From assembly GCA_049325515.1 (NCBI GenBank), contig JBMOLI010000011.1:25022-89021 (forward strand): a DNA stretch of 64,000 nt, in the 5' to 3' direction. The stretch is from Actinomycetota bacterium. GTDB taxonomy: Bacteria > Actinomycetota > Acidimicrobiia > Acidimicrobiales > VFJN01. The position numbers and the translations under genes are program-made. The notes beneath the pieces are model-generated. The model was not told where the DNA came from. It did no database searches and was given only the letters and a program-made list of their open reading frames with translations. Positions within the stretch are counted from its first letter, which is position 1; each line of letters opens with the position of its first letter. This document shows, piece by piece, positions 3,594-63,505 of this stretch.

Positions 3594-5630
3594 CTAGGCG
3601 GGGCGGCGGTCGCGTCCTGCGCGCATGGCCCGCTTCTGCTCGATGAAGTCGACGAGGACGTAGTCGCCGAGCGTCTCGGGCGTGGTGAAGAAGGCGCGTC
3701 CCCGGTTCATCTGGGTGAGCTTCTCGACGAAGGCCCGCAGATAGGGCGTGGCGTCGAGCATGAAGGTGTTGATGCGGATGCCTTCCTTCGTGCAGCGGAC
3801 GACCTCGCGCAGGGTGGCGTCGATGGTCTCCTGCACGGGCGGGTAGCTGAAGAAGGGCGCCGACATGCCGGCTTCGAAGTGAGCAGTCGGCTCTCCGTCG
3901 GTGATCATGATGATCTGCTTCGTGCCGCTCTGGCGCGCCAGCATCTGCCGGCTCAGCAAGAAGGCGTGCTGCATGTTGGTGCCGTAGACGAAGTCCCACG
4001 ACACCTCCGGCAGCTGCTCAGGCGTGATCACCCGGGCGACCTCGCTGAAGCCGACCATCCCGAGGTAGTCGCGCGGGAACTGCATCGAGATGAGCGAGTG
4101 GAGCGCCATCGCCACCTTCTTGGCGGCGAGGAAGTTGTCACGCATCGGCATCGAGAGCGACAGGTCGAGCATCAGCACCGTCGAGCTGCGGACGACCTGC
4201 TCGGTCTGCTCGATCTCGAAGTCTTCGGGCGTGAGTCGCACGGGAGTGCCTCCACCGGTGCGACGTATCCCGTTGCGGACCGTGCGTTCGATGTGGAGGT
4301 TGAAGGGGTCTCCGAACTCGTATGGCTTCGTGTCGTACGTGCGCTCATGGCCAGCGCCCGTGCGCTCGATCTCGTGACGTCCGAGCTTGTCGCGAGCGAG
4401 CTTGGAGAAGAGGTCGGCCAAGGCGTTGCGGCCGATCTTGCGCAAGCCCTTCGGGGTGAGCTCGAGCTTGCCCTCCTTGTTGTTGATGAGGCCGGCGTCC
4501 TCCAGCTGCTGAGCCAGCTTGGCCAGCTGCTCGAGGCTGCGGGCGGCATCGTCCCCGAGGAGCTCGCGCGCACGATCGATGTCGACCTCCGCCAGGGCGC
4601 CCGGGCTGGCGGCGCCGCGCATCATCTGCTCGAGCTGGTCGAGGTCGCCCAGCTCGTTCAGCATCTGCGCTGCTTCAGCGAACCCCAACGGGTCCTGACC
4701 TGAGAAGTCGTAGCGGCGGTCCCATCCCATCTGCGGGAAGAGCTGCTGGAGGTGCCCGCCCAGCTGGTCCATCTGCCAACGGAGATCCATGTCCTCGAGC
4801 AGCTGCTCGGACAGGCCCTGGAGCTGCGCTCGCTGCTCCGGGGTCATCGAGTTGAGCATCGACTGCATGGCGGCCATGCGCTGCGCCATGATCTCGAGCA
4901 GCTCGTCGAGCGTCTCTGGGTTCTCCGGGAAGAAGTCGCCGTAGCGCTCCATGAACTGCTCGAAGGCCGCCTGCGTATCCTGGCCCGCCTCCTTCATGGC
5001 GAGCAGGTCGTTGAGGTCGGAGAGCATGTCCTTCATGCGCTGCATGGTCTCGGGACTGATGTCCTGCATGGCGCCGGCCATCTGGTTGAAGTAGCTCTGT
5101 GCCAGCTGCTGGCGCAGCTGGTCCATCAGCTCGTCGAAGCGCTCGCGTGCCTCCGAAGAGGTGAACTCGTACTGCTGGAGCTCCTTCACCATGCCTGCGA
5201 GGTCGGGCGGCAGCATGTCGAGCTGCAGGTTGCGCTCGGCCACGACCTGATCGGTGATCTCCTGACGGCGCTGATCGCCCGACTCGCGGGCCTCTCGCGC
5301 CAGCTCGTCCAAGCCCTGCCGCTCGGTGTCGAGCACCTCCCGCAGCGCTTCTGCGATCTCCTCGTAGACGCCGCCGAGGTCGTGCTGCTCGAGTCGCTCG
5401 CGTCGCTGGCGGCGCAGCCGCTCCATCAGGTCGCGCATGCCCATCAGCTGCTCGTCGTTGCGGTCGCGGAAGCCCTGCTGCATCAGCCGGCGCAGGGCAG
5501 CGTGGAGGTCGCCGTGGTAGAGGAGGTCGTCGGTGATCTCCTCGAGGATCGACTCAGCGTCGAGCTCGAACCCGACCTGGGTGCCGTCCCAGCGCGAATA
5601 GCGGAAGTGGGGTCCGGGCATCGCCCGCAA
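3594..5630 (-). CDS. von Willebrand factor type A (VWA) domain protein with a long coiled/acidic N-terminal region
   Basis: The C-terminal part has the VWA/MIDAS context VLMLDLSLSMPMRD ... IIMITDGEPT. The N-terminal 450 aa are rich in E/R/Q/L helices. This is the usual partner of the AAA ATPase at 6397-7806. Confidence 0.8.
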   Translation of the reverse strand: MRAMPGPHFRYSRWDGTQVGFELDAESILEEITDDLLYHGDLHAALRRLMQQGFRDRNDEQLMGMRDLMERLRRQRRERLEQHDLGGVYEEIAEALREVLDTERQGLDELAREARESGDQRRQEITDQVVAERNLQLDMLPPDLAGMVKELQQYEFTSSEARERFDELMDQLRQQLAQSYFNQMAGAMQDISPETMQRMKDMLSDLNDLLAMKEAGQDTQAAFEQFMERYGDFFPENPETLDELLEIMAQRMAAMQSMLNSMTPEQRAQLQGLSEQLLEDMDLRWQMDQLGGHLQQLFPQMGWDRRYDFSGQDPLGFAEAAQMLNELGDLDQLEQMMRGAASPGALAEVDIDRARELLGDDAARSLEQLAKLAQQLEDAGLINNKEGKLELTPKGLRKIGRNALADLFSKLARDKLGRHEIERTGAGHERTYDTKPYEFGDPFNLHIERTVRNGIRRTGGGTPVRLTPEDFEIEQTEQVVRSSTVLMLDLSLSMPMRDNFLAAKKVAMALHSLISMQFPRDYLGMVGFSEVARVITPEQLPEVSWDFVYGTNMQHAFLLSRQMLARQSGTKQIIMITDGEPTAHFEAGMSAPFFSYPPVQETIDATLREVVRCTKEGIRINTFMLDATPYLRAFVEKLTQMNRGRAFFTTPETLGDYVLVDFIEQKRAMRAGRDRRPA

Positions 5631-5639
5631 CCGTATCCA

Positions 5640-5704
5640 CCAACCAACGTCTGTGAACTCTCCCGGCCGCTATGCGGCCGTGGAGGTTCACAGACGTTGG
5701 TTGG
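5640..5704 (+). repeat. 65-nt palindromic intergenic repeat, copy 1
   Basis: Perfect 19-nt inverted arms CCAACCAACGTCTGTGAAC (5640-5658) and GTTCACAGACGTTGGTTGG (5686-5704) flank the 27-nt core tctcccggccgctatgcggccgtggag, which holds the inner hairpin cggccgc-tat-gcggccg. The strand sign denotes core orientation (arbitrary). Confidence 0.9.
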
Positions 5705-5745
5705 TAAGGGGGAAGGTTCGCGCTCGGAGACGGGTTGAGCACCCT

Positions 5746-6390
5746 GTGCGAGTGGAGATCTGGAGCGACGTCGCCTGCCCGTGGTGCTACGTGGGGCTTG
5801 CTCGGTTCGAGCGGGCGGTCGAAGAGACGGGCGCCGACGTCGAGATCGTGTTCCGTGCCTTCGAGCTCGATCCGTCGGTGCCGACCGGCACGGCCAGCCC
5901 GCCCTTGGTCGAGTACCTCGGTCGCAAGTACGGCGACCTGAGCCGAGTGCGCGCAGCGCACGCGCGCCTCACCGAAGCGGGTGCCTCAGCCGGCATCGAC
6001 TTCCGCTGGGAGGGCATGCGGCGTGCCAACACGTTCGATGCGCATCGGCTGCTCACGTGGGCCCTCGAGAACGAGGGCGCGGCGCGGCAGAGGGACCTCA
6101 AGCTGGCACTGCTGAGGGCCTACTTCTCCGACGGCCTCGACGTGGCCGACCACGAGGTGCTCGCCGACCTCTGCGGCTCGGTCGGCTTGCAGCGCGAGGC
6201 GGCCCTGGCAGTGCTCGATTCGGATCGCTACTCGGCGGAGGTCCGGGCCGAGCGGGCCGAAGCTCATAGCAACGGCATCGCAGCCGTCCCGACCTTCGTC
6301 GTGGAGGGCGAGTGGATGCTGCAAGGCGCGCATGACACCTCCGCGTGGGTGAAGGCCCTCACCCACATGCAGAAGAACCGACTTTCGTAA
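5746..6390 (+). CDS. DsbA family (FrnE-like) thiol:disulfide oxidoreductase
   Basis: VRVEIWSDVACPWCYVGLARFE carries the CPWC thioredoxin-fold active site at the N-terminus typical of DsbA/FrnE proteins. The ORF-track start 5653 reads through repeat copy 1, so I use GTG 5746 (or 5752). Confidence 0.8.
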   Translation: MRVEIWSDVACPWCYVGLARFERAVEETGADVEIVFRAFELDPSVPTGTASPPLVEYLGRKYGDLSRVRAAHARLTEAGASAGIDFRWEGMRRANTFDAHRLLTWALENEGAARQRDLKLALLRAYFSDGLDVADHEVLADLCGSVGLQREAALAVLDSDRYSAEVRAERAEAHSNGIAAVPTFVVEGEWMLQGAHDTSAWVKALTHMQKNRLS

Positions 6391-13698: not shown

Positions 13699-13704
13699 CG
13701 ACGT

Positions 13705-14439
13705 CTAGAGGTTGCCGTCGGGGTGGCGTGCCTCTTCTACGAGGTCACCGAGCCCGGGCTCGAGGAGGTCGTGAGCGACGTCTGCCACGATCGAGTGGCG
13801 CCGCTCTCGCCGGGAGCGGATCAGCTCGACGGCGATGGGCGCCAGAGAGATGGCGACGATGGTGAGGATCGCCAGCTCGAGGTTCTGCTCGATGACGTCG
13901 ACCTGACCGAGGAAGTAGCCGAGCAGGGTCACACCGAAGGCCCAGAGCGTGCCGCCGATCACGTTGAAGGTGACGAAGGTGCGGTACTGCATGCGGCTCA
14001 CACCCGCGGTGATCGGCGTGAACGTGCGCACGATGGGCACGAAGCGAGCCAGGACGATGGCCTTGGGGCCGTGCTTGTCGAAGAACGCTTGCGCCTTGTC
14101 GACGTTCTCTGACTTGAAGAGGCGTGAATCGGGTCGCTTGAACAGCGCTGGACCGACGCGCTGGCCGAACACGTAGCCCACCTGGTCGCCCGCGACTGCA
14201 GCCACCCAGGTGCCGAGCAGGAGCGGCAGGAGCGGAAGGTGCAGCTCGTCCGCCACGCTCGATGGCGAAGACGCAAGGAAACCAGCCGTGAAGAGCAGCG
14301 AGTCGCCTGGAAGGAAGAACCCGATGAGCAGGCCAGACTCGGCGAACACGATCAAGAAGATGCCGAGCAGCCCGAAGGTCTCGATCAGCCGCTCCGAGTC
14401 GAGGAAGTCGGGCAGCAGGGCGAGCACTGACGCGAGCAC
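13705..14439 (-). CDS. DedA family (VTT domain) membrane protein
   Basis: FAESGLLIGFFLPGDSLLFTAGF and ARFVPIVRTFTPITAG are DedA hallmarks. Multiple TM helices are predicted. Confidence 0.85.
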   Translation of the reverse strand: MLASVLALLPDFLDSERLIETFGLLGIFLIVFAESGLLIGFFLPGDSLLFTAGFLASSPSSVADELHLPLLPLLLGTWVAAVAGDQVGYVFGQRVGPALFKRPDSRLFKSENVDKAQAFFDKHGPKAIVLARFVPIVRTFTPITAGVSRMQYRTFVTFNVIGGTLWAFGVTLLGYFLGQVDVIEQNLELAILTIVAISLAPIAVELIRSRRERRHSIVADVAHDLLEPGLGDLVEEARHPDGNL

Positions 14440-22398: not shown

Positions 22399-23400
22399 TC
22401 ACCTCAACGTGACGTAGCCGGGCACCTCGTGGTGTGGGGTGTCGAGGTAGGCCTTGGCCTCGGGTGGCTTGCCGAAGCGGCCGTGGCTCCACCGGATCTC
22501 GACGTGGCCGTCGACCGTGATCTCGCGGCCCTCGGCGCGATCCCGGATGCGCGCCTGCCAGCGCACCTGCGGCTGACCGGCGTCGTCCCCCCAGACATCG
22601 AAGCGCTTCAGCTCGAAGGCCTGGCGCCAGTCCCACGGCGTCATGACGCGCAGGCGGAGCGTGCGCCCGCGCTGGGCACCCAGCACGAAGTAGGGCGCGC
22701 TCCCGATGCGCAGGAGCCGCCAGAGCATGGCCTCGGCCTCCTGCCGCCGCCGCAGCGTGCGGCGCCACCGCTCGGCTGAGGCCTGGCCGACGGCCGAGGC
22801 GAGCTCCAGGTAGGCGGTCTGCGACTCCGCCGACCAGCCCTGGTCGAGGTAGGCGCGCAGCTCCGCGCGGTGCGAGGGGGTGAGATCTGCCGCATGGGGT
22901 GGCAGCGAGGCACGAGAGCCGAGCTCGAGGCGCACCTGACCGAACAAGCGCTGGTACGGCTCGGGGGCCACCTCGGCGTACCAGTCACCGGAGGCAGTGG
23001 AGGGCCCTCCGACGAGTGCCCGATCGAAGAGGCGAGACGGAGCAGAGTTGGCGAGCACCTTCGACAGGTACTTGCAGCTCACGAGCCACACGTGGTCGAT
23101 GCGCAGGTCGGCCGGCACGACCTCGTCGCCAGGTGCGTGAGTGGGGCCCTTCCACTCGACTGTGATGGGCGCCCGCCCGCGGAGCCCGTCGGGCGAGCTC
23201 AAGAAGGCGGCCCCGTTGGCCCAAGCCGCGGCGAACTCCTGACGATGCCTGCCCTCCCGCTCGAGAGTCGCCAGCCGATGCCAGATCTCATCGCTCACGT
23301 GGGCGACGGCACGATCGGCCAAGGCTGATCGAAGGTCGGGCGCGCCGGTGATCGCCATCCCGGTGACGATCTCGGTGATCTCTGTCTTGGCGGACGGCAC
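22399..23400 (-). CDS. hypothetical protein, candidate restriction endonuclease partner of the adjacent DNA methyltransferase
   Basis: A 333-codon high-GC3 frame begins (GTG 23400) 15 nt after the methyltransferase stop. PADLRIDHVWLVSCKYLSK could be a D...S-x-K variant of the PD-(D/E)XK nuclease motif. No other family signature recognised. The function is inferred from context only. Confidence 0.55.
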   Translation of the reverse strand: MPSAKTEITEIVTGMAITGAPDLRSALADRAVAHVSDEIWHRLATLEREGRHRQEFAAAWANGAAFLSSPDGLRGRAPITVEWKGPTHAPGDEVVPADLRIDHVWLVSCKYLSKVLANSAPSRLFDRALVGGPSTASGDWYAEVAPEPYQRLFGQVRLELGSRASLPPHAADLTPSHRAELRAYLDQGWSAESQTAYLELASAVGQASAERWRRTLRRRQEAEAMLWRLLRIGSAPYFVLGAQRGRTLRLRVMTPWDWRQAFELKRFDVWGDDAGQPQVRWQARIRDRAEGREITVDGHVEIRWSHGRFGKPPEAKAYLDTPHHEVPGYVTLR

Positions 23401-23415
23401 GAGGAGGGCGGCGCC

Positions 23416-24834
23416 TCAGGAGCCAGGGAGCAGATCGCCGACCGGGCGCGCCTTGCCCGCCGCGTAGCCCGCCATCCGCTCGACGGCGCCAGGCGCGCCG
23501 AGCTCGACCACATCGACCATGGCTGAGCCTCGCGCCGACGCCAGCGCAGCGAGCGGTGCCGAGCGGGCGGGCGGAAGGTCGGTGGTGATGATGAGCACCC
23601 GGTGCCCTGCCTGGGTCAGCACCGTGGCCTCGCCGAGCGTGCGGAAGAGCACGTCGGACCGGCGCAGACCGGCGCGAACGACGGTGCTGGCGCCGGCGAC
23701 CAGCACGAGCCAGTCGGCGCCCTTGGCGTCGGTGGCGATCCAGTCGACCGCGAGGCCACCGGCAAAGCGACGCCGCTTGCTGACGGTGGCGTCGGCCACG
23801 GAGAAGCCGGCCGCCTCGAGCAGCTCCCTGGCGGCGACGACGGCCTTGTCGGGCCGAGGGACCGCGGGCGCCGACAGCGATGAGGCGACCTCTCGCGCCA
23901 CCCGCTCGCGCGCGGCCTTCGCATAGGCGTCGTCAGTGTCGTAGCCGAGGTAGTGGCGACCGGTGCGCACCGCGGCGACAGCTGTGGTGCCGGACCCCAT
24001 GAACGGATCGAGCACGACGTCGCCGCGGTAGGTGTAGAGGTCGATGAGCCGCTGCGGGAGCTCCACCGGGAACGGCGCTGGATGGTTGACGCGGCTCGCG
24101 CTCTCCGGCGCCAGCTCCCACACGTCGAGAGTGGCGTCCATGAACTCGTCGGCGGTGACCGTCGCCTGGTGGGGGAGATCGGCGGCCAGCCGCTCGGCGC
24201 TCTTCAGCGCACGGTCGAAGCGGCCCTTGCTGGCGATCACGACGCGCTCGGTCAGATCTCGTAGGACCGGGTTGGCCGGCTGCTTGAACGACCCCCACGC
24301 GCAGTTGCCTCCGGCGCCGCGCGCCTTGCGCCAGATGATCTCCCCTCGCAGGAGCAGACCCAGCCGATCTTGGAGGATGCCTATGACGTCGGCCGACAGC
24401 GACCGGTATGGCTTGCGCCCGAGGTTGGCGACGTTGACGGCGATGCGCCCGCCCGCCTCGAGCTTCTCGACGCACTCGGCGAACACCTCTTCGAGCATGG
24501 TGAGGTAGTCGACGTAGGTCGCTGGGATGTGGCCTTGGCCCAGCTCCTCCTCGTAGGCCTTGCCGGCGAAGTAGGGAGGCGAGGTGACCACGAGGGCGAC
24601 CGACGAGGGACGGACCCTGTCCATCTGACGGGCGTCGCCCACGTAGATCTGGTCGACGACCCCGGGCGGGGCGACGGTTGCGTCGGGGCTCAGCGTGGGT
24701 GCAGTGAACCGGGCGTAGAAGCCGCTGGCGTCGTGGTTCTCTCGGCGGGACACGCCAAACGACGACGTGGAGGTCGCTCGCTTGCGCTGCGCGCCTGCAT
24801 CCACTGCTGCCAACCCTCTCGTCGCTCCGGCCAC
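23416..24834 (-). CDS. site-specific DNA methyltransferase (N4-cytosine/N6-adenine, beta class) with extra C-terminal domain
   Basis: Catalytic motif IV VVTSPPYFAGK comes before the AdoMet motif I VLDPFMGSGTTAVAA, which is the beta-class order. About 140 further C-terminal residues (AVVAARELLEAAGFSV...DWIATDAKGADWLVLVAG...) have no methyltransferase motifs. Confidence 0.85.
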   Translation of the reverse strand: MAGATRGLAAVDAGAQRKRATSTSSFGVSRRENHDASGFYARFTAPTLSPDATVAPPGVVDQIYVGDARQMDRVRPSSVALVVTSPPYFAGKAYEEELGQGHIPATYVDYLTMLEEVFAECVEKLEAGGRIAVNVANLGRKPYRSLSADVIGILQDRLGLLLRGEIIWRKARGAGGNCAWGSFKQPANPVLRDLTERVVIASKGRFDRALKSAERLAADLPHQATVTADEFMDATLDVWELAPESASRVNHPAPFPVELPQRLIDLYTYRGDVVLDPFMGSGTTAVAAVRTGRHYLGYDTDDAYAKAARERVAREVASSLSAPAVPRPDKAVVAARELLEAAGFSVADATVSKRRRFAGGLAVDWIATDAKGADWLVLVAGASTVVRAGLRRSDVLFRTLGEATVLTQAGHRVLIITTDLPPARSAPLAALASARGSAMVDVVELGAPGAVERMAGYAAGKARPVGDLLPGS

Positions 24835-24949: not shown

Positions 24950-27184
24950 GTGAGCTCCAAGATCATCTACACGCACACGGACGAGGCACCGGCCCTGGCC
25001 ACCTACTCGTTGCTGCCGATCATCCAGGCATTCGCCAGCGCGGCAGGGGTGGAGGTCGAGACCCGCGACATCTCGCTGGCTGGGCGCATCCTGGCGGCAT
25101 TCGCCGATCGTCTTCCGGAGGACCAGAGGGTGCCCGACGCGCTGGCGGAGCTCGGCGCGCTGACGCTGCGACCCGAGGCGAACATCATCAAGCTGCCGAA
25201 CATCAGCGCTTCGGCGCCGCAGCTGAAGGCGGCCATCGCGGAGCTCCAAGCAAAGGGCTTCGCGCTCCCCGACTACCCCGAGGATGCCGACGACCCCGAC
25301 AGCGCGGACATCCGCGCTCGATACGACAAGGTGAAGGGCAGCGCCGTCAACCCGGTGCTCCGCGAGGGCAACTCCGATCGACGCGCACCTGCATCCGTCA
25401 AGCACTACGCCCGCACGCACCCCCACTCGATGGGCACCTGGTCCCCCGACTCGCGCACCCACGTGTCGACGATGACGAGTGGCGACTTCCGATCCAATGA
25501 GCGCTCGGCCACCATGGCAGCGGACGACGAGCTGCGCGTCGAGCTCGCTGCAGACGACGGCACCACTTCGATCCTGAAGGAGTCCGTGCCGGTTCTCGCG
25601 GGCGAGATCGTCGACGCCACGGTGATGAGCCGGCTGGCGCTCGTCGCCTTCCTCGAGGAGCAGATCGCCGATGCGAAGGCGCGCGACGTCCTGTTCTCGA
25701 TCCACCTGAAGGCGACGATGATGAAGGTCTCAGACCCGATCATCTTCGGTCACGCCGTTCACACCTTCCTGCGAGACGTGTTCGAGGAGCACGGTGCGGC
25801 CTTCGACGAGGCCGGCATCAGCCCCAACGACGGACTGGCCAGCCTGCTCACCGCCATCCAGAGCTTCCCCGACGACCAGCGCGCAGCCATCGAAGCCGGC
25901 GTGGCCAAGGCGTTCGAGCAGGGCCCAGCGGTTGCGATGGTCGACTCCGACCGTGGGATCACCAACCTGCACGTGCCGAGCGATGTCATCGTCGACGCGT
26001 CGATGCCCGCCATGATCCGCACGTCGGGGCAGATGTGGAACGCGGCGGGCGACCCGCAGGACGCCAAGGCCGTGATCCCCGACAGCAGCTACGCGGGCGT
26101 CTACCAGGTCGTGATCGACGACTGCCGGGCGCACGGGGCTTACGACCCGGCCACGATGGGCTCGGTCTCCAACGTCGGGTTGATGGCCCAGCAGGCCGAG
26201 GAGTACGGATCGCACGACAAGACGTTCGAGGTTCCGGCGGCCGGCACCGTGAGGGTCGTCGACTCGTCGGGCACGACGGTGTTCGAGCACCGCGTGAGCG
26301 AGGGCGACATATGGCGCATGTGCCAGGTCAAGGACGTGCCGATCCAGGATTGGGTGAAGTTGGCCGTGAAGCGGGCACGGGCGACGGGTGCGCCGGCGGT
26401 CTTCTGGCTCGACGAGGCGCGCGCCCACGACGCCGAGGTCATCAAGAAGGTCAGGCGCTACCTGGCCGACCACGACACCGACGGCCTCGAGATTCAGGTC
26501 CTGGCTCCTGTCGAGGCCACGCGCCTCTCGCTCGAGCGCATCCGCAAGGGCCTCGACACGATATCGGTCACGGGCAACGTGCTGCGCGACTACCTCACCG
26601 ACCTGTTCCCGATCCTCGAGCTCGGCACCAGCGCCAAGATGCTGTCGGTAGTGCCGCTGATCGCGGGCGGCGGGCTCTTCGAGACCGGGGCCGGCGGCTC
26701 GGCGCCGAAGCACGTCCAGCAGTTCACCAAGGAGAACCACCTCCGCTGGGACTCGCTCGGCGAGTTCCTGGCGCTGGCCGTCAGCTTCGAGCACCTGGCG
26801 CAGACCACCGGCAACAAGCGCGCCCAGGTGCTCGCCGACACGCTCGACGCGGCGACCGGAAGGCTCCTAGAGGAGAACAAGTCGCCGTCGCGCAAGGTCA
26901 ACGAGATCGACAACCGCGGCAGCCACTTCTACCTGGCGCTCTACTGGGCGCAGGCTCTCGCCGAGCAGACGGATGACGGCGAGATCGCAGCGACATTCGC
27001 GCCGCTCGCCGCATTGCTCGCAGAGCAGGAGGCGGTCATCGCGGACGAGCTGCTGTCGGTTCAGGGCAGCCCCGTCGACATGGGCGGCTACTACAGCCCC
27101 GACCTCGAGCTCGCCACAGCGGCGATGCGGCCCAGCGAGACTTTCAACCGAGCCCTCGAAACCCTCACCAACCAACGTCTGTGA
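24950..27184 (+). CDS. icd: NADP-dependent isocitrate dehydrogenase, monomeric type
   Basis: 744 aa with an N-terminus [23 protein letters not shown] characteristic of monomeric IDH. The stop TGA (27182-27184) lies inside the left arm of repeat copy 2. Confidence 0.95.
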
Positions 27185-27232
27185 ACCCCCATGGCCGCAT
27201 ACCGGCCGCCGCAGTTCACAGACGTTGGTTGG
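27168..27232 (-). repeat. 65-nt palindromic intergenic repeat, copy 2 (core inverted relative to copy 1)
   Basis: Perfect arms CCAACCAACGTCTGTGAAC (27168-27186) and GTTCACAGACGTTGGTTGG (27214-27232). The core ccccatggccgcataccggccgccgca is the reverse complement of the copy-1-type core. Confidence 0.9.
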
Positions 27233-27237
27233 TGGGG

Positions 27238-42297: not shown

Positions 42298-45200
42298 TCA
42301 GAGCTTCTTGAGCGGCGCCCACGAGAGCAGCAGGCGCTTCTCCCCAACTCCTGGGAACCGGATCACGACCTCTGCCTTCTCACCCTGGCCCTCGAGCAGG
42401 AGCACGACGCCCTCTCCGAAGGTGGCGTGGGAGACGTCGTCGCCGACCTTCAGACCGAGGGCCTCTGCACCGTGCTTCGCGGGGCCCGTGCCGCTGGAGG
42501 TCAGCGCCCGGTCCACGATCCGGTCGCGATTGCTGCTCACGCCGCTCCCGCTCGAGCCGTAGCCGCCGCTGCCGTAGGTGCGTCCGCCGCGGCTGGCCCG
42601 GCGCTGCTCGATGGCCTCCACCAGGCGTTCGGGGATCTCGTCGAGGAAGCGGCTCGGCGGGTTGTACTGAGTGCCGCCGTACAGCGTGCGGCTCCACGCA
42701 TGGGTCAGGTAGAGGCGCTCCTGCGCGCGGGTGAGAGCGACATACGCCAGGCGCCGCTCCTCCTCCAGCTCGTCGGGCTCACCGATCGAGCGCAGGTGCG
42801 GGAAGACGCCGTCCTCCAGCCCGATGATGAACACGGCCGGGAACTCCAGGCCCTTGGCGGCGTGGATGGTCATGAGCACGACCTGGCTGTCGTCGCCGTC
42901 GATCTCGTCGGCGTCGGAGACGAGGCTCACCTGCTCGAGGAACTGGTCGATCGATTCAGCCTCCTGCGCCGAGCCGACCAGCTCGGCCAGGTTCTCCAGC
43001 CGGCCTTCGCTCTCGATGGTGCGCTCGGCTCTCAGCTCGTCGAGGTAGCCGGAGCGCTCGAGGAGCGCTTCGAGGAGCGGGGCGGGACGGTCGTCCGCCG
43101 CCAGGTCGGCGACGCTGTCGAGCAGGTAGATGAACTGCTCGATGCCCTTGGCCGCCTTGCCGCCGACCCCGGCGTCGTCGGACCGCCGCAGGGCATCCAT
43201 GAAGGACAAGCCCCGCGCCGATGCGTAGGCGTCGAGCTTGCCCACGCTGCTGTCGCCGATGCCTCGCTTGGGGTTGTTGAGCACGCGCTTCACCGACACC
43301 TCGTCAGAGGGGTTGATGACCGTCTTGAGGTAGGCGAGCGCGTCCTTCACCTCACGGCGGTCGTAGAAGCGCGTGCCGCCGATGACCTTGTAGGGCACAC
43401 CGTGGCGCGCCAGGTGCTCCTCCAGCACGCGGCTCTGCGCGTTGGTGCGGTAGAAGACGGCCACATCGCCCCAGCGGTGCTCACCCCCGTCGTGCAGGCG
43501 CGAGATCTCGCGCGTCACCCACTGCGCCTCGTCGACCTCGTCGTCGCCGTGGTAGCGCACGATTGGGTGGCCGTCGCCACGGTCGGTCCAGAGCTCCTTC
43601 GGCTTGCGCCCGAGGTTGTTGGAGATGACGGCGTTGGCAGCGTCGAGAATCGTCTGGGTGGAGCGGTAGTTCTGCTCGAGCACGACGACCGTGACCTCAG
43701 GAAAGGCGTTCTCGAACTCGAGGATGTTCCTCATGTCCGCTCCCCTGAAGGCATAGATACTGTTGTGGACGCAAATATTGTCCGCGCAATAGTTGTGCGT
43801 CCCCTCCACCTCGAGGTCGTAGACCGGCCCGTCGTACGAGACGGTGTCGACATCGTCGACGCGAGTTGGAACGAGATCCCCAGCGCCATCGTCGACCAGC
43901 ACCGTCATCCCCGGCCGAAGATGTGACAGCGGCATGAAGGCCCACACGCGATCGCCGATCTGTGCCCTCCGCCGGATCTTCAAACCGCCCGCGTGAGCCG
44001 AGGCGAGAGCCAGGTCAAGCGCGTCTCCGTAGCTCTTGCGCATCGTCTCGAAGCGGACACTCGAGCTCTTGGCGGACCTCACCGGAATGCCAGCCGCCTT
44101 CAGGCGGTCGGCCACGTCAAGCCTGTTCGAGCACCACTGGACCCGATGGTGAGCTATCCCTGAGGTGCGGCGCTCGCCCCCGAACATGCTCAGGTTGAGG
44201 GTCTGGCGCCGCCCTCCAGCACCCGGCCAGATGTGAGGGAACTCGGGATGGAGGTCGAGGTCAGCCATCAGCTCCTTGGCGCGCAGATCGGTGTCGAGCA
44301 CCTCGAACAACTCCGCGATCTGCTCCTCGTCCATCGCCAGACGCCGACCCTGGCCGTGAAAGACAGCAGTGGGGAGTCCGTAGGCCGCTGCGTAGAGCGA
44401 CTCCCAGTACGACGCTTCGCCTCGGGAATCGCAGACCCGCAAGAACCAGAGCGCATCGGCGTGCTCCTGGTTGACCCGGACTCGCGGACCCAGCTCCTCC
44501 CCGCTGGCTCCGCTGCGGACGCTCTGGGTGAGACCGATGCGCCAGCCGCGGTCACTTCGGTACATCAGGTACACGACCCACTTGTCACGGTCGAGCATCG
44601 GGTCGGCGAACACGATGTGGTGGGGGGTGCCCTCAAGGGTGTGCCCGCCTGCTCGGACGAAGTACTGGCGACCCGACCACTCACCTACTTGCACGTGGGT
44701 GACTCGGCCGCTGACCTGCTCGAAGCCTCCGCCGGTGCCTAGCACCTCGTCGCCGACCTCGATCTGCTCGATGGGCCGCGGTCCGTGTGGCGTGGAGACG
44801 AGCGTGCCCGTGGGCAGGCACTGGTCTCCGTCGCCTACCACGCAGACGTTGCGGTGGGTCTTGGAGAGGAGGAGCACGAGCTCGTTCTGGACGGCATTGG
44901 TGTCCTGGTACTCGTCGACCAGGACGTGCTTGAAGCGCCGCTGGTAGTGCTCGAGCAGATCGGGGTTGCGGCGCAGCAGCTCGACCGCGTTGGCGAGCAG
45001 GTCGTCGAAGTCCATCGCACCAGCGCGCTGGAGGCGGGCCTGGTACTCGGTGAAGATCTCGCCGATCTTGCGCTCGAAGATCACCTCGGCCCGGTCGACG
45101 TACTGCCCCGCCGAGATGCCGTCGTTCTTGGCCGCGCTGATGGTGGCGTGGATCGACCTCGGTGGGAACCGCTTCGGGTCGAGACCGAGATCTCGGATGA

Positions 45201-45582
45201 CGTAGCCGGTGAGCCTGTTGGCATCGGCCTGGTCGTAGATCGTGAACTGCTTCGGGTAGCCGAGCCGGTCGGCGTCGCGTCGCAGGATCCGCACGCACGC
45301 GGCGTGGAAGGTCGACACCCACATCTTCTCGGCGACCGGGCCGACGAGAGCAGCCACGCGGTGCTTCATCTCGTCCGCCGCCTTGTTGGTGAACGTGATG
45401 GCGAGGATCTCGAACGGGCTCACCCCGCACTCGCGGATCAGGTGTGCGATGCGATGCGTGAGGACCCGCGTCTTGCCCGACCCCGCGCCCGCCACGATGA
45501 GGAGCGGCCCCTCGTCATGGGCGACGGCCTCCCACTGAACCGGGTTGAGGCCCTCCTGGAGGGAATCGGGCGCGTCGCTCAT
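42298..45582 (-). CDS. pcrA: ATP-dependent DNA helicase PcrA/UvrD (SF1), interrupted by an intein
   Basis: Walker A AGAGSGKTRV, motif II VLVDEYQDTN, motif III split as VVGDGDQ | intein | SIYAFRGAD, and later motifs VLEQNYRST and TIHAAKGLEF. Total length is 1094 aa. Confidence 0.95.
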   Translation of the reverse strand: MSDAPDSLQEGLNPVQWEAVAHDEGPLLIVAGAGSGKTRVLTHRIAHLIRECGVSPFEILAITFTNKAADEMKHRVAALVGPVAEKMWVSTFHAACVRILRRDADRLGYPKQFTIYDQADANRLTGYVIRDLGLDPKRFPPRSIHATISAAKNDGISAGQYVDRAEVIFERKIGEIFTEYQARLQRAGAMDFDDLLANAVELLRRNPDLLEHYQRRFKHVLVDEYQDTNAVQNELVLLLSKTHRNVCVVGDGDQCLPTGTLVSTPHGPRPIEQIEVGDEVLGTGGGFEQVSGRVTHVQVGEWSGRQYFVRAGGHTLEGTPHHIVFADPMLDRDKWVVYLMYRSDRGWRIGLTQSVRSGASGEELGPRVRVNQEHADALWFLRVCDSRGEASYWESLYAAAYGLPTAVFHGQGRRLAMDEEQIAELFEVLDTDLRAKELMADLDLHPEFPHIWPGAGGRRQTLNLSMFGGERRTSGIAHHRVQWCSNRLDVADRLKAAGIPVRSAKSSSVRFETMRKSYGDALDLALASAHAGGLKIRRRAQIGDRVWAFMPLSHLRPGMTVLVDDGAGDLVPTRVDDVDTVSYDGPVYDLEVEGTHNYCADNICVHNSIYAFRGADMRNILEFENAFPEVTVVVLEQNYRSTQTILDAANAVISNNLGRKPKELWTDRGDGHPIVRYHGDDEVDEAQWVTREISRLHDGGEHRWGDVAVFYRTNAQSRVLEEHLARHGVPYKVIGGTRFYDRREVKDALAYLKTVINPSDEVSVKRVLNNPKRGIGDSSVGKLDAYASARGLSFMDALRRSDDAGVGGKAAKGIEQFIYLLDSVADLAADDRPAPLLEALLERSGYLDELRAERTIESEGRLENLAELVGSAQEAESIDQFLEQVSLVSDADEIDGDDSQVVLMTIHAAKGLEFPAVFIIGLEDGVFPHLRSIGEPDELEEERRLAYVALTRAQERLYLTHAWSRTLYGGTQYNPPSRFLDEIPERLVEAIEQRRASRGGRTYGSGGYGSSGSGVSSNRDRIVDRALTSSGTGPAKHGAEALGLKVGDDVSHATFGEGVVLLLEGQGEKAEVVIRFPGVGEKRLLLSWAPLKKL
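43762..44820 (-). mobile_element. intein (353 codons) inside helicase motif III of pcrA/uvrD
   Basis: Begins with Cys (CLPTGTLVSTPHG, block A; codon at 44820-44818). Block B is GHTLEGTPHHIVF, blocks F/G are VYDLEVEGTHNYCADNICVHN, and the +1 residue is Ser (SIYAFRGAD). The last Asn codon is at 43764-43762. The flanks rejoin into the canonical GDxDQSIYxFRGA motif. Confidence 0.85.
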
Positions 45583-45647
45583 GGGGGACTCAGGCTACCG
45601 GTGCGGTGTGGCGGCCCCGGACCCGGCGCGCCGGTACGGTCCGTGGC

Positions 45648-47180
45648 GTGACCGTGCCCCGAGACGTCGTCGTGGTGCTGCTCGACAGCCTCAACCGCCA
45701 CCTCCTCGGGTGCTACGGCAGCGGCGAGTTCGACACGCCCAACCTCGACCGCCTGGCGGCCCGCTCCGTTCGGTTCACGAACCACCACACCGGCTCGCTG
45801 CCGTGCATGCCGGCTCGCCACGACCTCCTGGTGGGAGCGCTCGACTTCCCCTGGCGACCGTGGGGGTCGATCGAGGTGTGGGAGGACTCGATCACGCACC
45901 TGCTGCGGCGCGACGCCGGCGTGTCGACGATGCTCGTCTCCGACCACCCGCATCTCTTCGAGGCGGGCGGCGAGAACTACCACGTCGACTTCCAGGGCTG
46001 GGAGTACCTGCGGGGCCACGAGGACGATCCGTGGCGCACGCGTCCAGACCCCTCGTGGCTCGGCGCTCCGGCACTGCAGGCGCGCGCCGCCCCGTGGGAG
46101 CGCGCCTACGACAGCGCGCGCACGTGGTTCAGGGACGAGGCCGACTTCCCCGGCCCGCGCACGATGGTCGCCGCGGCAGAGTGGCTCGATCGGGAGCTGG
46201 CCGCGGTCCGCGAGCCGCACGAGCGGTCGCTGCTGGTCGTCGACGAGTTCGACCCGCACGAGCCCTTCGACGTGCCAGAGCCGTGGGCGTCTCGCTACGA
46301 CCCCGACTGGGAGGGCGAGCGCCTCATCTGGCCGCCCTACGCCCGCGACGCGGCGAGCGCCGGCCTCACACCGCGGGAAGGCCAGCACCTGCGCGCGCAG
46401 TACGGCGCCAAGCTGTCGATGATCGACCACTGGCTGGGTCGCATCCTCGAGGTGATCGACCGTCGCGATGCATGGGACTCGACTGCCGTCGTGCTGTGCA
46501 CCGATCACGGCCACTACTTGGGCGAGCGCGGCACGTGGGGCAAGCCGGCCGTGCCCGTCTTCCCCGAGATGGGCCACATCCCGCTGCTCATCAGCTGGCC
46601 CGGCGTCGCGCCGAGGTCGTGTGATGCGCTGACCACGACCGTCGATCTGCACGCCACCCTCTGCGACACGTTCGCCGTCGAGCCTTCCCATCGCACGCAC
46701 GGTCGCTCGATCGTGCCGCTGCTCGAGAGCCAGGTCAGCTCTGTCCGCGAGTGGGCGCTGTGCGGGGTGTGGGGGCGCGAGGTCCACGTGGCGGACGCGA
46801 CCCGCACCTACGCGCGCGCTCCGGTCGACGCCAACCGACCCCTCTCCATGTGGTCGAACCGCTGGTCGACCATGCCCGTGCGCGCCTTCCCCGACCTGCG
46901 CCTGCCGCGCCCCGACCGGCGCGCAACGCTCGACCACCTTCCCGGCAGCGACGTGCCGGTCATCCGCCAGCCGTTCGACCCGAGCGATGCGATCCCGTTC
47001 TGGGCGTCGGGCCGCTTCCAGGGCGACGTGCTCTACGACAGAGCCGAGTGTGCAGCGACCGGCGAGGTGCGCGACCAGTCGGGCGACGGGGCCGCCGCGG
47101 AGATGAGCGAGCTCCTGCGGGCGGCCCTCCGTTCCATCGAGGCGCCGGCCGAGCAGCTGGTCCGGCTGGGCTTGGACTAG
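45648..47180 (+). CDS. sulfatase family hydrolase
   Basis: VVVVLLDSLNRH metal-binding N-terminus and the C-x-P-x-R formylglycine signature in GSLPCMPARHDLLVG. GTG 45648 chosen; the ORF-track start is 45606. Confidence 0.85.
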   Translation: MTVPRDVVVVLLDSLNRHLLGCYGSGEFDTPNLDRLAARSVRFTNHHTGSLPCMPARHDLLVGALDFPWRPWGSIEVWEDSITHLLRRDAGVSTMLVSDHPHLFEAGGENYHVDFQGWEYLRGHEDDPWRTRPDPSWLGAPALQARAAPWERAYDSARTWFRDEADFPGPRTMVAAAEWLDRELAAVREPHERSLLVVDEFDPHEPFDVPEPWASRYDPDWEGERLIWPPYARDAASAGLTPREGQHLRAQYGAKLSMIDHWLGRILEVIDRRDAWDSTAVVLCTDHGHYLGERGTWGKPAVPVFPEMGHIPLLISWPGVAPRSCDALTTTVDLHATLCDTFAVEPSHRTHGRSIVPLLESQVSSVREWALCGVWGREVHVADATRTYARAPVDANRPLSMWSNRWSTMPVRAFPDLRLPRPDRRATLDHLPGSDVPVIRQPFDPSDAIPFWASGRFQGDVLYDRAECAATGEVRDQSGDGAAAEMSELLRAALRSIEAPAEQLVRLGLD

Positions 47181-47191
47181 ACCCTCTGCCG

Positions 47192-48055
47192 ATGCAGGTC
47201 CAGAAGCTCACCTCAACCGACGGCTTCATCGTCTTCGACCTGGACGACGCGCCGGCGATTGGTGTCGTCCGCCTGGCGCCGAAGGTGCTGCGCGACAGCG
47301 CCGAGCTGCTGGCTCGCTCCACCACCTACGCGGCCGCCAGCTTCGGACTGCGCATCGGCGGAGGATCGGCCGGCATCAACGCCAAGCCCGACGATCGGGA
47401 GACCGCACTCGCCGCCTTCCTCGAAGACGTCGGCGACATGGTCGGCTCGGGTCGCTTCCTGCCAGGGCCGGGTCTTGGGGTCTCGCCCGATGACCTCACC
47501 TCGTTGCCCGATGCCGAGAAGCGTGCGCTGGCCTTCGACCAGACGACCGCGGCCGATGGTGCGGTGGCGGCAGCTCACGGCGCGCTGGGCTCGCTGGACG
47601 GTTGCCGCGTGGCGATCGTCGGCCAGGGCCCGCTCACCGAGGCCGCTGCGGCCGCTGCCGCGGCGCACGGTGCGACCCCGGAGCCGCAGGCGTCGTTCGA
47701 CGCCGACTGCGACGTGCTTCTCGTCGCCGGCAAGGCAGGGGTGCTGGAGCACGACCTTGCCGCCACGGTTCGGGCAAGGGTCGTCGTGCCGCTCACGCCG
47801 GTACCCGTCACGGCCCGCGCTCTCGCGGTGCTGGGCCGCGCCGACATCGTCGTCGTGCCCGACTTCCTCTCCACCGCGGCTCCGATGCTGGCGGCGTTGG
47901 ACCCAGATGGTGGCGACCCGCGCGACCGGGTGCGAGATGCCGTGGCGGATCTCGCCGGCGAGGGCACCAACCTCTGGATGGCAGCAGCACTGCGAGCCGA
48001 GGAGCACCTCAAGACCTGGCAGTCGGCGCTCCCCTTCGGCCGCCCCCTCGCCTAG
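47192..48055 (+). CDS. Glu/Leu/Phe/Val dehydrogenase-like protein, catalytic Lys replaced
   Basis: FGLRIGGGSAGINAKP aligns to the family signature [LIV]-x2-G-G-[SAG]-K-x-[GV] with Ser in the Lys position. A Rossmann-like VAIVGQGPLTEAAA is present. ATG 47192 lies 12 nt after the sulfatase stop. Confidence 0.7.
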   Translation: MQVQKLTSTDGFIVFDLDDAPAIGVVRLAPKVLRDSAELLARSTTYAAASFGLRIGGGSAGINAKPDDRETALAAFLEDVGDMVGSGRFLPGPGLGVSPDDLTSLPDAEKRALAFDQTTAADGAVAAAHGALGSLDGCRVAIVGQGPLTEAAAAAAAAHGATPEPQASFDADCDVLLVAGKAGVLEHDLAATVRARVVVPLTPVPVTARALAVLGRADIVVVPDFLSTAAPMLAALDPDGGDPRDRVRDAVADLAGEGTNLWMAAALRAEEHLKTWQSALPFGRPLA

Positions 48056-48085
48056 CTCCAGCCCGCCCCGGGTGGCCGAGGGCTC

Positions 48086-48152
48086 AACAACCAACGTCTG
48101 TGAACCCCAATGGCCGGTATGCGGACGTAGCGGTTCACAGACCTTGGTTGTT
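48086..48152 (+). repeat. 65-nt palindromic intergenic repeat, copy 3
   Basis: Arms AACAACCAACGTCTGTGAAC (48086-48105) and GTTCACAGACCTTGGTTGTT (48133-48152) with one mismatch. Core is cccaatggccggtatgcggacgtagcg. Confidence 0.9.
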
Positions 48153-48176
48153 TCTTAGAGTCTGACGATATTGTCA
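48144..48176 (+). promoter_or_regulatory. putative arsR-sulP promoter with overlapping palindromic operator
   Basis: TTGGTT (48144-48149, inside the repeat's right arm), then 17 nt, then GATATT (48167-48172). The imperfect palindrome TGACGATATTGTCA (48163-48176) overlaps the -10. An outer inverted repeat GAGTCTG (48158-48164) / CAGACTC (48192-48198) is also present. The region is locally AT-rich. Confidence 0.3.
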
Positions 48177-48574: not shown

Positions 48575-50253
48575 GCGTCCAAGGCCTCGCGTCGCTGCCG
48601 CCTCTCGCTTCGCTCATGCCGAGCCGACGCGACTACGCGGGCCTGCGCCGCTCGTGGCGCGGCGACGTGCTGGCAGGCGCCACCGTCGGCGTGGTCGCAC
48701 TCCCGCTCGCTCTGGCCTTCGGCATCACCACAGGCCTGGGCGCCGAAGCGGGCCTCACCACGGCGATAGTGGCAGGGCTCGTCGCCGCCGTGTTCGGCGG
48801 CTCGAACGTGCAGGTGTCCGGGCCAACCGGCGCCATGACGGTGGTGCTCGTGCCGGTTGTCGCCCGCCACGGGGCCGACGCGGTGCTCGTGGTGGGGATC
48901 ATGGCTGGGTTGCTCGTCTTGGCGGCGGCGGTCCTTCGACTCGGTCGCTACCTCGCCTTCGTGCCCTGGCCAGTCGTCGAGGGCTTCACCGTTGGCATCG
49001 CCGTGATCATCTTCCTGCAACAGGTGCCGTCTGCTCTCGGCGTGACGAAACCTGACGGCGAGAACACCGCCCTCGTCGCGGCCAAGGCGATCGACGAGGC
49101 CGTCGGCAGCGGGCGGATCGCGGCCCTCATGGTGGTGGCACTTGTGGCAGCGGTCATGGTGGTCGTCCCGCGGCTGCACCGCAGCCTGCCGGCGTCACTC
49201 CTCGCCGTGGCAGCTGCGACTGCCATCTGCGAGCTGGGGAGCATCGACGTGGCCCGCATCGGGTCGCTTCCAGGTTCCCTGCCGCTGCCCTCGCTCCCGT
49301 CGCTCCCGCTCGACCAGGTGAGCCAGCTCTTCTCCGCCGCGCTTGCCGTCGCGATCCTCGCGGCGCTCGAGAGCCTGCTCTCTGCCAAGGTGGCCGACGG
49401 CATGTCAGACGCCGGGCGCCACGACCCGGATCGGGAGCTCTTGGGGCAAGGACTCGCCAACATCGCATCTCCCCTGTTCGGCGGCATGCCGGCGACCGGT
49501 GCCATCGCCCGCACCGCGGTGAACGTCCGCAGTGGGGCTCGCACCCGAGTTGCGGCGGTCACCCACGCGGTGGTGCTGATGGCTGTCGTGCTCTTCGCTG
49601 GTGACCTCGTGAGCCGCATCCCGCTGGCGGCGCTGGCGGGCGTGCTCATGGTCACCGCCTGTCGGATGGTCGAGGTGCACAACGTGCGGGCAGTGGCGCG
49701 TGCCACGCGCTCCGACGCCGTCGTGCTGTGGCTGACGGCCCTGGCGACCGTCGCCTTCGATCTGATCATGGCGGTGGAGATCGGCATCGCAGCGGCCGCC
49801 GTGCTGGCCCTGCGGCACGTTGCGCGAACGGCACAGGCCACCCCCACGCCGGTGACCGAGCTGGGGCAGGACCAGGCCGAGTCGTTGCTGAACGAGGGCA
49901 TCCTCACCTACCGCCTCGACGGCGCCCTCTTCTTCGGTGCCGCTCAGCGCTTCCTCACGGAGCTGACCGCGATCAGCGACGCCAAGGTGGTGGTGCTGCG
50001 CCTGCCCGACATCCAGATGCTCGACGCCACGGGCGCTCAGGCGCTCGGCGAGATCGTCGCCGAGCTGGAGGACCGCGGCATCACGGTTCTTCTGAAGGGC
50101 CCGCGCCCCGGCCACCTGCGCGTTCTCGAGGTCACCGGTGCTCTCGATCGCCTGGCCCACGCCAACCATGTGTTCGACGACCTCGGTGCGGCTCTGGAGC
50201 ACGCCCGAAGCCACGTCGCCCGCGCGCCCATCAAGACCCCGGCCCCGGCCTAG
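48571..50253 (+). CDS. SulP family inorganic anion transporter with C-terminal STAS domain
   Basis: The ATG overlaps the arsR stop (ATGA). There are about 11 TM helices and the SulP texts GATVGVVALPLALAFG and FGGMPATGAIARTAVN. The STAS tail is YRLDGALFFGAAQRF ... LDATGAQALGEI. Confidence 0.9.
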   Translation: MSVQGLASLPPLASLMPSRRDYAGLRRSWRGDVLAGATVGVVALPLALAFGITTGLGAEAGLTTAIVAGLVAAVFGGSNVQVSGPTGAMTVVLVPVVARHGADAVLVVGIMAGLLVLAAAVLRLGRYLAFVPWPVVEGFTVGIAVIIFLQQVPSALGVTKPDGENTALVAAKAIDEAVGSGRIAALMVVALVAAVMVVVPRLHRSLPASLLAVAAATAICELGSIDVARIGSLPGSLPLPSLPSLPLDQVSQLFSAALAVAILAALESLLSAKVADGMSDAGRHDPDRELLGQGLANIASPLFGGMPATGAIARTAVNVRSGARTRVAAVTHAVVLMAVVLFAGDLVSRIPLAALAGVLMVTACRMVEVHNVRAVARATRSDAVVLWLTALATVAFDLIMAVEIGIAAAAVLALRHVARTAQATPTPVTELGQDQAESLLNEGILTYRLDGALFFGAAQRFLTELTAISDAKVVVLRLPDIQMLDATGAQALGEIVAELEDRGITVLLKGPRPGHLRVLEVTGALDRLAHANHVFDDLGAALEHARSHVARAPIKTPAPA

Positions 50254-50265
50254 CCCCGAGGGCTC

Positions 50266-63504: not shown

Positions 63505-63505
63505 C

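Follow-up and report, generated by a model that had tools for sequence, protein, structure and literature searches.

What is a palindromic repeat of 65 to 69 nt that occurs five times in a single 64-kb stretch of an actinobacterial chromosome, and how did it come to be there? The stretch in question, called here the window, comprises 64,000 nt, from position 25,022 to position 89,021 of contig JBMOLI010000011.1 (assembly GCA_049325515.1; Actinomycetota, Acidimicrobiia, Acidimicrobiales). A reading of its letters alone, hereafter the original prediction, had taken the five copies for members of a dispersed palindromic family, present in many copies per genome and resembling REP (repetitive extragenic palindromic) sequences or transposable elements of the miniature inverted-repeat type (MITEs). 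The comparative analysis presented below establishes that they belong to a dispersed family of ~69-nt hairpin repeats of Microthrixaceae (Acidimicrobiales, Actinomycetota) chromosomes. The family is probably a non-autonomous hairpin repeat of the REP/REPIN kind, mobilised in trans and tolerated, or of use, as a 3' hairpin.

A dispersed hairpin repeat family of Microthrixaceae chromosomes

All five copies were located in the window, each with inverted arms of 17-21 nt around a core that is 27 nt long in 5/5 cases, as had been claimed. With the pattern AACCAACGTCTGTGAAC-N27-GTTCACAGACGTTGGTT and up to three mismatches, four of them were recovered against 0.00 expected from shuffles; with the 14-mer arm and up to two mismatches, 10 arms, forming the five pairs, were found against 0.42 expected. 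When one genome per species was scanned for the exact pattern ACGTCTGTGAAC-N20-34-GTTCACAGAC, at least 70 loci came up outside the window, in at least five metagenome-assembled genomes (MAGs). Nearly all of the listed loci (cited below by their L numbers) are from the Microthrixaceae MAG SAW230, where at least 66 copies were counted; the others are from SAR292, MFD01275.bin.2.210, Acidimicrobiales LejiaD_68_331 and MFD04212. The original prediction had named two outcomes that would speak against it, and neither was found: the family is not confined to the window, and the copies are not conserved flanks of paralogous genes, their neighbours being unrelated housekeeping genes. Nearly the same 69-nt sequence is present at no fewer than 80 unrelated loci, which means that it was copied to many places.

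The listed loci and the window together provided a family set of 79 non-redundant copies. The distance between the arms was 27 nt in 82 of 83 matches, the single exception being of 30 nt; this longer core was seen solely at L030:7020-7090 (MAG MFD04212), a site orthologous to that of the 27-nt copy L049:1305. Nucleotide identity between the window and the SAW230 loci ranged from 78 to 87%, which assigns the window to a Microthrixaceae genome that is related to SAW230 but distinct from it; the copy density in the window is of 5 per 64 kb. Rfam gave no match to the window at gathering thresholds, and in permissive mode generic miRNA-hairpin models alone, far below threshold. The family was found neither in the plasmid collection nor in the viral collections, where chance matches in contigs of 30% G+C appeared, and full-text searches by arm sequence and by topic returned no literature description of it.

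Because the core is asymmetric, each copy can be oriented. An independent iterative orientation of the 79 copies recovered exactly the earlier call (copies 1, 3 and 4 pointing one way, copies 2 and 5 inverted) and led to the consensus CACCAACCAACGTCTGTGAAC / CSCCACGTCCGCATKGCGGACGYCAGG / GTTCACAGACGTTGGTTGGTG, with flanks that are C-rich on the left and G-rich on the right. The inner arms, GTCTGTGAAC and GTTCACAGAC (10 + 10 nt), are invariant in 79/79 copies. Ascertainment alone does not explain this, since it also holds among the five copies of the window, in whose selection the scan played no part: their pairwise differences amount to 0/200 for the inner arms, 24% for the outer arms and 27% for the core (~33% in the core for family copies). 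Both 17-nt arms are intact in just 48 of the 79 copies, the outermost bases being the least conserved and often replaced by native sequence. A search of 592 kb with nhmmer, filters off, detected no decayed copies, and in the same 592 kb the inner-arm 10-mer lies within a full element at each of its 161 occurrences, which leaves no solo arms.

An invariant 10-mer brings to mind the uptake signals of naturally transformable bacteria, the DUS of Neisseria and the USS of Haemophilus (DNA uptake sequence and uptake signal sequence, respectively). The copies would then be pairs of such motifs, kept uniform by biased DNA uptake, with the inverted pairs doubling as terminators; several features described below would fit, namely variant families particular to each lineage, inverted pairs that resemble terminators and lie at 3' ends, the lack of a transposase and intragenic occurrence. 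However, DUS and USS are mostly single and the spacing of their pairs is variable, whereas the core is here fixed at 27 nt and has conserved features of its own, together with an asymmetric loop. As 161/161 10-mers are in complete elements, a DUS-like motif was rejected, and we give this explanation a very small chance.

The core folds on itself, as predicted, through an inner stem (ACGTCCGC/GCGGACGT) closed by a 3-nt loop. Its two halves differ: the left CGCCACG and the right CGCCAGG, read on the same strand, form a 7-nt direct repeat (CGCCASG) inside the palindrome, and the presence of this repeat in both half-cores is what creates the C.A and C.C mismatches seen in ~70% of the copies as a conserved asymmetric internal loop. 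On both strands, every window copy folds into one long hairpin (-35 to -62 kcal/mol, with z from -3.4 to -14.5). The consensus fold, at -55 kcal/mol, has a 22-bp outer stem, a 4x4 internal loop, a 7-bp inner stem and the 3-nt loop; in the individual copies, whether taken as RNA or as single-stranded DNA, the outer stem is of ~21 bp and the inner one of 7-8 bp. It takes the whole element to form this hairpin, since the 21-nt arms alone (-1.5 and -3.5 kcal/mol) and the half-elements (-3.1 and -8.4 kcal/mol) fold weakly and have no stem in common. Neither end of the consensus has a GTAG, and the CGTC that occupies arm positions 11-14 is paired with the GACG of the opposite arm. Their invariance suggests that the inner arms are read by sequence-specific recognition.

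Position of the copies relative to genes

Genes were called by GC3 periodicity. Sixty-four of the 79 copies were placed between genes and two inside genes; by context, 33 are convergent, 27 tandem, 4 divergent and 15 unclassified. Convergent and divergent gaps being equal in number in any genome, the ratio of 33 to 4 (binomial p = 1e-6) reveals a strong bias towards gene 3' ends. In tandem contexts, the orientation of the element is independent of the direction of transcription (11 versus 16). The stop codon is found between -8 and +19 nt from the arm boundary in 92 of 97 adjacent gene ends, and it often belongs to the element: the TGA inside the arm (CTG TGA) is used by 32 gene ends, with protein tails reading ...(T/S)NQRL*, and a TAG or TAA at arm positions 1-3 (from CAG/CAA) by 18 others. 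Such overlap is what insertion in a convergent gap must produce, the element-free convergent gaps of the window being of just 6-30 nt.

The five window copies illustrate these situations (the coordinates given here take in the outermost paired bases of the arms). Copy 1 (5638-5706, - orientation; arms 5638-5658 and 5686-5706, core 5659-5685) has a hairpin of -61 kcal/mol (z -12 to -15). It separates two divergent genes, a VWA-like open reading frame (ORF) at 3594-5630 (-) and DsbA at 5749-6390 (+). Copy 2 (27166-27234, +; left arm 27166-27186, core 27187-27213, right arm 27214-27234) stands between the convergent genes for monomeric isocitrate dehydrogenase (IDH) and MTHFR, the latter ending at 27238; the IDH stop, TGA 27182-27184, is inside its left arm and the protein ends in ...LTNQRL*. 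Copy 3 (48085-48153, -), with one arm mismatch, begins 30 nt past the stop (48055) of an ELFV-dehydrogenase-like ORF and ends 62 nt upstream of the arsR start (48215). Copy 4 (50265-50326, -) has on one side the SulP stop (50253) and on the other a convergent gene for a dienelactone hydrolase (DLH). Its left arm is complete; its right arm is reduced to GTTCACAGACCTTG, the right outer arm is missing, and native coding sequence follows. The DLH stop (TGA, - strand, 50315-50317) is within the arm, so that the protein keeps its native ...KLLQ before an arm-encoded GL*, giving ...KLLQGL* where relatives have ...KLLQSA* or ...KLLQPA*. The left arm of copy 5 (63505-63573, +) directly adjoins the stop codon of Maf (63502-63504); 6 nt beyond the right arm, after a G-run, comes the start of Dus (TTG, ~63580). 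The claim that every window copy is intergenic or touches a gene end was right, copies 2 and 4 even supplying the IDH and DLH stops; beyond the window it is not general, two copies being in-frame inside genes. The window has a G+C content of 67-71%, and its genes are core chromosomal ones (sdhAB, mdh, monomeric IDH, MTHFR, purHN, sucCD, pcrA, guaA, guaB, maf, dus).

Copies 3 and 4 have in common a 9-nt extra left flank, CCGAGGGCT, outside the arm (window 48073-48084 and 50253-50264), and they are mutual nearest relatives in their core (3 differences). GAGGGC/GCCCTC-like extensions were also noticed on a few SAW230 copies (L020, L026:2257, L031), and a longer-armed subfamily may exist.

One of the two in-frame intragenic copies is in an acyl-CoA dehydrogenase homologue (L007, the same as L037), where it encodes the peptide TTTNVCEPPRPDGGGEGSQTLVA, and the other is in a MonCI-like flavoprotein (L023, the same as L009). 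Structure-based sequence alignments show at both a local length excess of 5-6 residues. These two copies and the divergent context of copy 1 imply that a terminator function, if any, is not universal. U-tract terminators are not enriched in the window: one was found against 3.6 expected by chance in 20 kb. The repeats resemble in this respect the U-tract-less 'I-shaped' terminators of Actinobacteria, being strong GC-rich hairpins placed right after stops, especially convergent ones, with no T-run. Unlike ordinary terminators, of locus-specific sequence and under structural constraint only, they have the same sequence at 80 loci or more, with invariant stem bases, and occur in ORFs and between divergent genes as well.

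Two sets of side observations concern these intergenic regions. Each arm of every copy contains an outward-facing TTCACA. The lone sigma-70-like promoter match in the 44-64 kb part of the window, at 48134-48161 (+) and 54 nt upstream of arsR, has as its -35 the TTCACA of the copy 3 right arm and as its -10 TAGAGT; it is followed by TGACGATATTGTCA (48163-48176), a perfect 14-bp palindrome with the appearance of an ArsR-type operator. In addition, the 110 nt downstream of the sdhB stop hold differing long near-perfect hairpins in many unrelated lineages (L072-L151), with TCTTTGAAGATCTTCCGGGCCATAGGCCCGGAAGATCTTCAAAGA and close variants in eight loci and other hairpins in L105, L125, L133, L139 and L145; it would seem that these Actinomycetota generally have lineage-specific long hairpins at the convergent end of sdhB.

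Gain, loss and retention of copies

Comparison of orthologous regions in relatives, proposed in the original prediction, revealed presence/absence polymorphism with filled and empty sites in both directions. The window lacks a copy at three sites that hold one in SAW230 (L021:4701, L026:1720 and L026:2257); conversely, copies 3 and 4 are absent from L160 and L161 despite the same synteny of the ELFV-dehydrogenase, arsR, sulP and DLH genes, and in L162, from another lineage, the corresponding gap is occupied by a hairpin repeat that is unrelated. A look-up of the exact MTHFR protein of the window gave one contig, of 3.3 kb, and hence no close strain for comparison. The common flank, shared orientation and close kinship of copies 3 and 4 had raised the idea that they bound a captured gene cassette; it was rejected since the arsR-sulP synteny of L160/L161 exists without them. 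More generally, the copies could be viewed as integron-like attC sites bounding gene cassettes, given that they are imperfect palindromes whose fold has an asymmetric internal loop, that arsR-sulP lies between two copies of the same orientation and that L070 holds four copies ~2 kb apart. But TGTGAAC/GTTCACA, read directly, do not fit RYYYAAC/GTTRRRY, the copies are dispersed in both orientations among housekeeping genes, no integrase was found, and L160/L161 refute the idea for the window, so that we find it scarcely credible.

A possible trace of loss was also considered. The sequence CGACGTCTAGAGGTTG (window 13699-13714) occupies the gap, of 5 nt, that separates the sdhB stop from that of a convergent VTT-domain gene, at the exact site of the element in SAW230 (L021) and in several metagenome lineages, and it has TGAC(G/A)ACGTCT in common with the truncated left arm of the L021 copy. 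A symmetric excision footprint, with the outer arms joined and the inner 39 nt lost, was rejected: metagenome orthologues of the VTT-domain gene show TCTAGAGG(G)TT to be its conserved C-terminus (...NL*). CGACGTCT alone may be the arm remnant of a lost copy, or a chance similarity.

Other copies have stayed in place over long periods. Six pairs of positional orthologues were identified, five between genomes ~79% identical (copy 5/L048, copy 2/L068, L009/L023, L030/L049 and L042/L058) and one, L007/L037, between genomes 97.8% identical. The intragenic L009/L023 pair is truly orthologous, as both copies occupy the same codon position and have the same truncated outer arm. Inner arms are identical (20/20) in 6/6 pairs. 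For copy 5 and its orthologue L048:5454, identity is of ~93% over the element versus 78% in the flanks. The cores at the four orthologue pairs scored differ at 3-13 of 27 positions, like those of random pairs (mean 8.8). The core centre CGC-ATA-CCG is found in 4/5 window copies versus 6/68 SAW230 copies (Fisher p = 0.0009); copy 2 has this window-typical centre and its positional orthologue, L068:5279, has a different one, which hints at homogenisation of the copies within a genome. Core distances between pairs of copies have a single mode, and near-identical pairs are few, so the family does not derive from a recent burst.

Could the repeats be simply host-evolved, or domesticated, cis-elements? 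A host protein, an RNase or a termination factor would bind the invariant arms at their fixed spacing and purifying selection would maintain every copy, mobility being historical or irrelevant. The identity of the inner arms at six orthologue pairs, with cores as diverged as those of random pairs at the four scored, the lack of decayed copies, a spacing that changes neither in the variant families nor in a Streptomyces family (see below) and the strong 3'-end bias are all in line with this proposal. It does not account for nearly the same sequence at 80 or more unrelated loci, which requires copying, nor for gains and losses between related genomes; in-frame intragenic copies and one in a divergent promoter region make no sense for a terminator or 3' element, and no candidate binding protein was identified. 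We regard it as rather unlikely; it is, at any rate, compatible with a REPIN-like repeat mobilised in trans, and does not exclude it.

Probable mode of spread and relation to known repeats

Which type of enzyme would have copied the repeats? Flanking direct repeats of 2, 3 or 4 nt were at chance frequency for the 48 intact copies at all 16 assumed boundaries, which means that target-site duplications were not detected. Their lack is expected of HUH-type elements and not of DDE-type ones. A classical MITE, i.e. the deletion derivative of a DDE-type insertion sequence (IS) with a transposase binding the 17-21-nt terminal inverted repeats, is for this reason hard to uphold, even though the arms are within the 15-30 bp usual for MITEs, coding capacity is nil and insertion polymorphism exists. 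Moreover, the outermost bases are the least conserved, 592 kb contained neither solo arms nor longer elements bounded by the same arms, 65-69 nt is below the usual MITE size, and plasmids and viruses in the collections lack the family. The MITEs to which it can be compared (Correia/NEMIS of Neisseria, RUP, ERIC and Nezha) are likewise non-coding, dispersed near genes, co-transcribed as hairpins and bounded by ~20-nt terminal inverted repeats, and one arm of our repeats has an outward -35-like TTCACA, as the Correia elements do; these MITEs differ by their target-site duplications, conserved termini and much greater length, and by having a parent IS, for which the 592 kb gave no candidate here. 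A MITE origin thus appears improbable.

We infer instead that a folded single strand is processed, in the style of REP/RAYT, IS200/IS605 or attC, from three facts: the lack of target-site duplications, the poor conservation of the termini and the asymmetric loop, which marks the strand. According to the REPIN-like reading, an enzyme encoded elsewhere would recognise in trans the folded strand by its invariant inner stem and asymmetric internal loop and would copy the element without target-site duplication, a Y1/HUH (RAYT-like) transposase being the most likely type. Copies would survive where a strong hairpin is harmless or helpful, that is downstream of genes in a compact genome lacking U-tract terminators, and there they would probably serve as 3' hairpins whatever their orientation, by terminating transcription or by blocking 3' exonucleases. 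Of the roles that the original prediction had listed without ranking, the data favour the folded-strand, REPIN-like repeat at 3' ends; the classical MITE is disfavoured and the strict definition of a REP does not apply.

Several results weigh against this reading, which we nonetheless consider the probable one. No transposase gene was found next to the copies or in the window, in agreement with the original prediction (Pfam scans of ~50 window ORFs), and the ORFs between closely spaced copies are ordinary genes. With E. coli RayT as query, tblastn and phmmer found no homologue in 1.17 Mb, which is a fraction of any one genome searched with one distant query. The arms are not palindromes and have no unpaired GTAG or CGTC tag, so they do not make a canonical REP doublet. 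Copy 1 is between divergent genes and two copies are inside ORFs. Arm invariance extends to old positional orthologues, truncated and intragenic copies included; this is hard to explain by mobility alone and points to host-level constraint or concerted evolution. Lastly, there is no covariation within the family, as detailed below. One candidate partner, a DUF559/AbiEi-like endonuclease-domain gene (~306 aa, -) between two same-orientation copies at L043:4603-5666, was dismissed as a single case, no other homologue being near copies in the sequence searched.

At each variable mirror pair, Watson-Crick counts equal the expectation under independence (30 observed versus 24.3 expected for pair 3-67, 29 versus 30.6 and 23 versus 21.3), and structural covariation inside the family was therefore rejected. 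It follows that the two arm subtypes of the original prediction, which do exist within the window, do not hold beyond it: many variants exist for the outer 4 nt, and there is no coupling of one arm to the other. Part of this variation is due to the neighbouring genes, the variants TAGC and TAAC of CAGC and CAAC serving as their stop codons. Pairing is, on the other hand, kept between families. Among metagenome loci retrieved with the window SdhB, sister families were found that retain the geometry CTGTG-NNN-N27-NNN-CACAG with compensatory triplets: AAC/GTT in the window family, GAC/GTC in L073 (3 copies), TGC/GCA in L072 and L087, and GGC/GCC in L077. A small repeat family of Streptomyces (L015:533-601 and 1976-2044; L033:3333 and 5766; L153:3001-3039) shares these inner arms, GTCTGTGAAC ... 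GTTCACAGAC, as well as the 27-nt spacing, but its core, GGCTTGACATGGATCATCAAGCC, is unrelated; this suggests either a wider superfamily or convergence on the same geometry. Pairing conserved between lineages together with a uniform sequence within a genome is the pattern expected of a sequence-specific trans factor reading the folded element.

A bolder proposal, to which we give somewhat less credence than to a purely host-evolved element, is that the repeat is the cis-partner of a hairpin-recognition system vertically inherited in Actinomycetota. A conserved trans protein, not necessarily a RAYT, would read CTGTG-NNN-N27-NNN-CACAG and the asymmetric loop, would co-evolve with lineage-specific arm variants from Acidimicrobiia to Streptomyces, and would keep the arms uniform in place, those of truncated and intragenic copies included, by selection or copy-to-copy conversion. 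If true, replicator and host would here be lasting partners, as in REPIN systems, but through another enzyme and in another phylum.

By architecture and behaviour, the family appears closest to REPINs, and is best called REPIN-like as it fails the strict definitions of REP and MITE. REPINs have conserved inverted arms, a variable spacer and a long vertical persistence (10.1101/2021.07.10.451892). The REPIN-RAYT systems of Pseudomonas and Enterobacteria share with the present repeats conserved inverted arms with a more variable spacer, a single long hairpin, tens to hundreds of chromosomal copies nearly all extragenic at gene ends, persistence at orthologous sites, lack of target-site duplication and species-specific sequence variants. 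They differ in that each REP unit is a short palindrome (a ~14-bp stem-loop) with an unpaired GTAG tag, in their length (~100 versus 69 nt) and in their cognate RAYT (Y1/HUH), a single-copy gene that the repeats usually flank and of which none was found here within the limits of the search described above; the spacer is here constant, at 27 nt, with its own conserved stem and asymmetric internal loop. REP/RAYT systems of Actinomycetota are reported neither in the REP survey (PMC3733652) nor in the REPIN preprint (10.1101/2021.07.10.451892).

The REP survey describes termini that supply stop codons, intragenic units, CGTC REPs without dedicated transposase and dimers forming large hairpins (PMC3733652). 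The CGTC-tagged REPs and their head-to-head dimers, such as Rickettsia RPE-4/RPE-6 (Di Nocera et al. 2013, PMC3733652), resemble our repeats by these large hairpins, by the lack of a known dedicated transposase, by termini that overlap coding regions and provide stops and by some in-frame copies in genes; each arm of our repeats also contains CGTC (AACGTCTG). In those REPs, however, the tag stays unpaired, and after it each monomer has a stem of 8-9 bp with a loop of 4-5 nt and a CCA tail, whereas here CGTC pairs with GACG in the opposite arm and a hairpin of the monomer is lacking. The family is undescribed and belongs to a phylum that has been little studied; the kind of element (REP/REPIN-like) is familiar and its mechanism is one that we infer.

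Three other features of the window, away from the repeats, deserve mention. The PcrA/UvrD-type helicase ORF at 42298-45582 (-) encodes 1094 aa, has matches to Hint/intein-splicing domains at ~residues 255-607 and has orthologues of 741 aa in L158/L159; on these grounds it appears to carry an intein. In L160, a neighbouring IMPDH orthologue has intein/homing-endonuclease domains. An N6/N4 DNA methyltransferase ORF (23416-24834, -) adjoins a 333-aa ORF without Pfam match (22399-23400), and the 22399-24834 (-) region may be a restriction-modification pair or contain an orphan methylase. Finally, a sulfatase ORF (45606-47180, +) is overlapped by ~430 nt when the ORF with weak ELFV-dehydrogenase matches (46751-48055, +) is taken from its first possible start; the true start is probably near 47190, given that orthologues are of 287-301 aa.

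Small palindromic repeats have been characterised mainly in Proteobacteria, and the Microthrixaceae include organisms that cause foaming in wastewater plants. For their genomes, the family would be at once a marker and an assembly hazard. It would also offer a natural case of repeats that rewrite protein C-termini, with the recurrent ...NQRL*, and insert in-frame into enzymes, and an opportunity to ask how arms can remain invariant while genomes diverge for long. Should a cognate enzyme exist, its specificity would be easy to study thanks to the fixed 27-nt geometry and to arm variants that differ from lineage to lineage.

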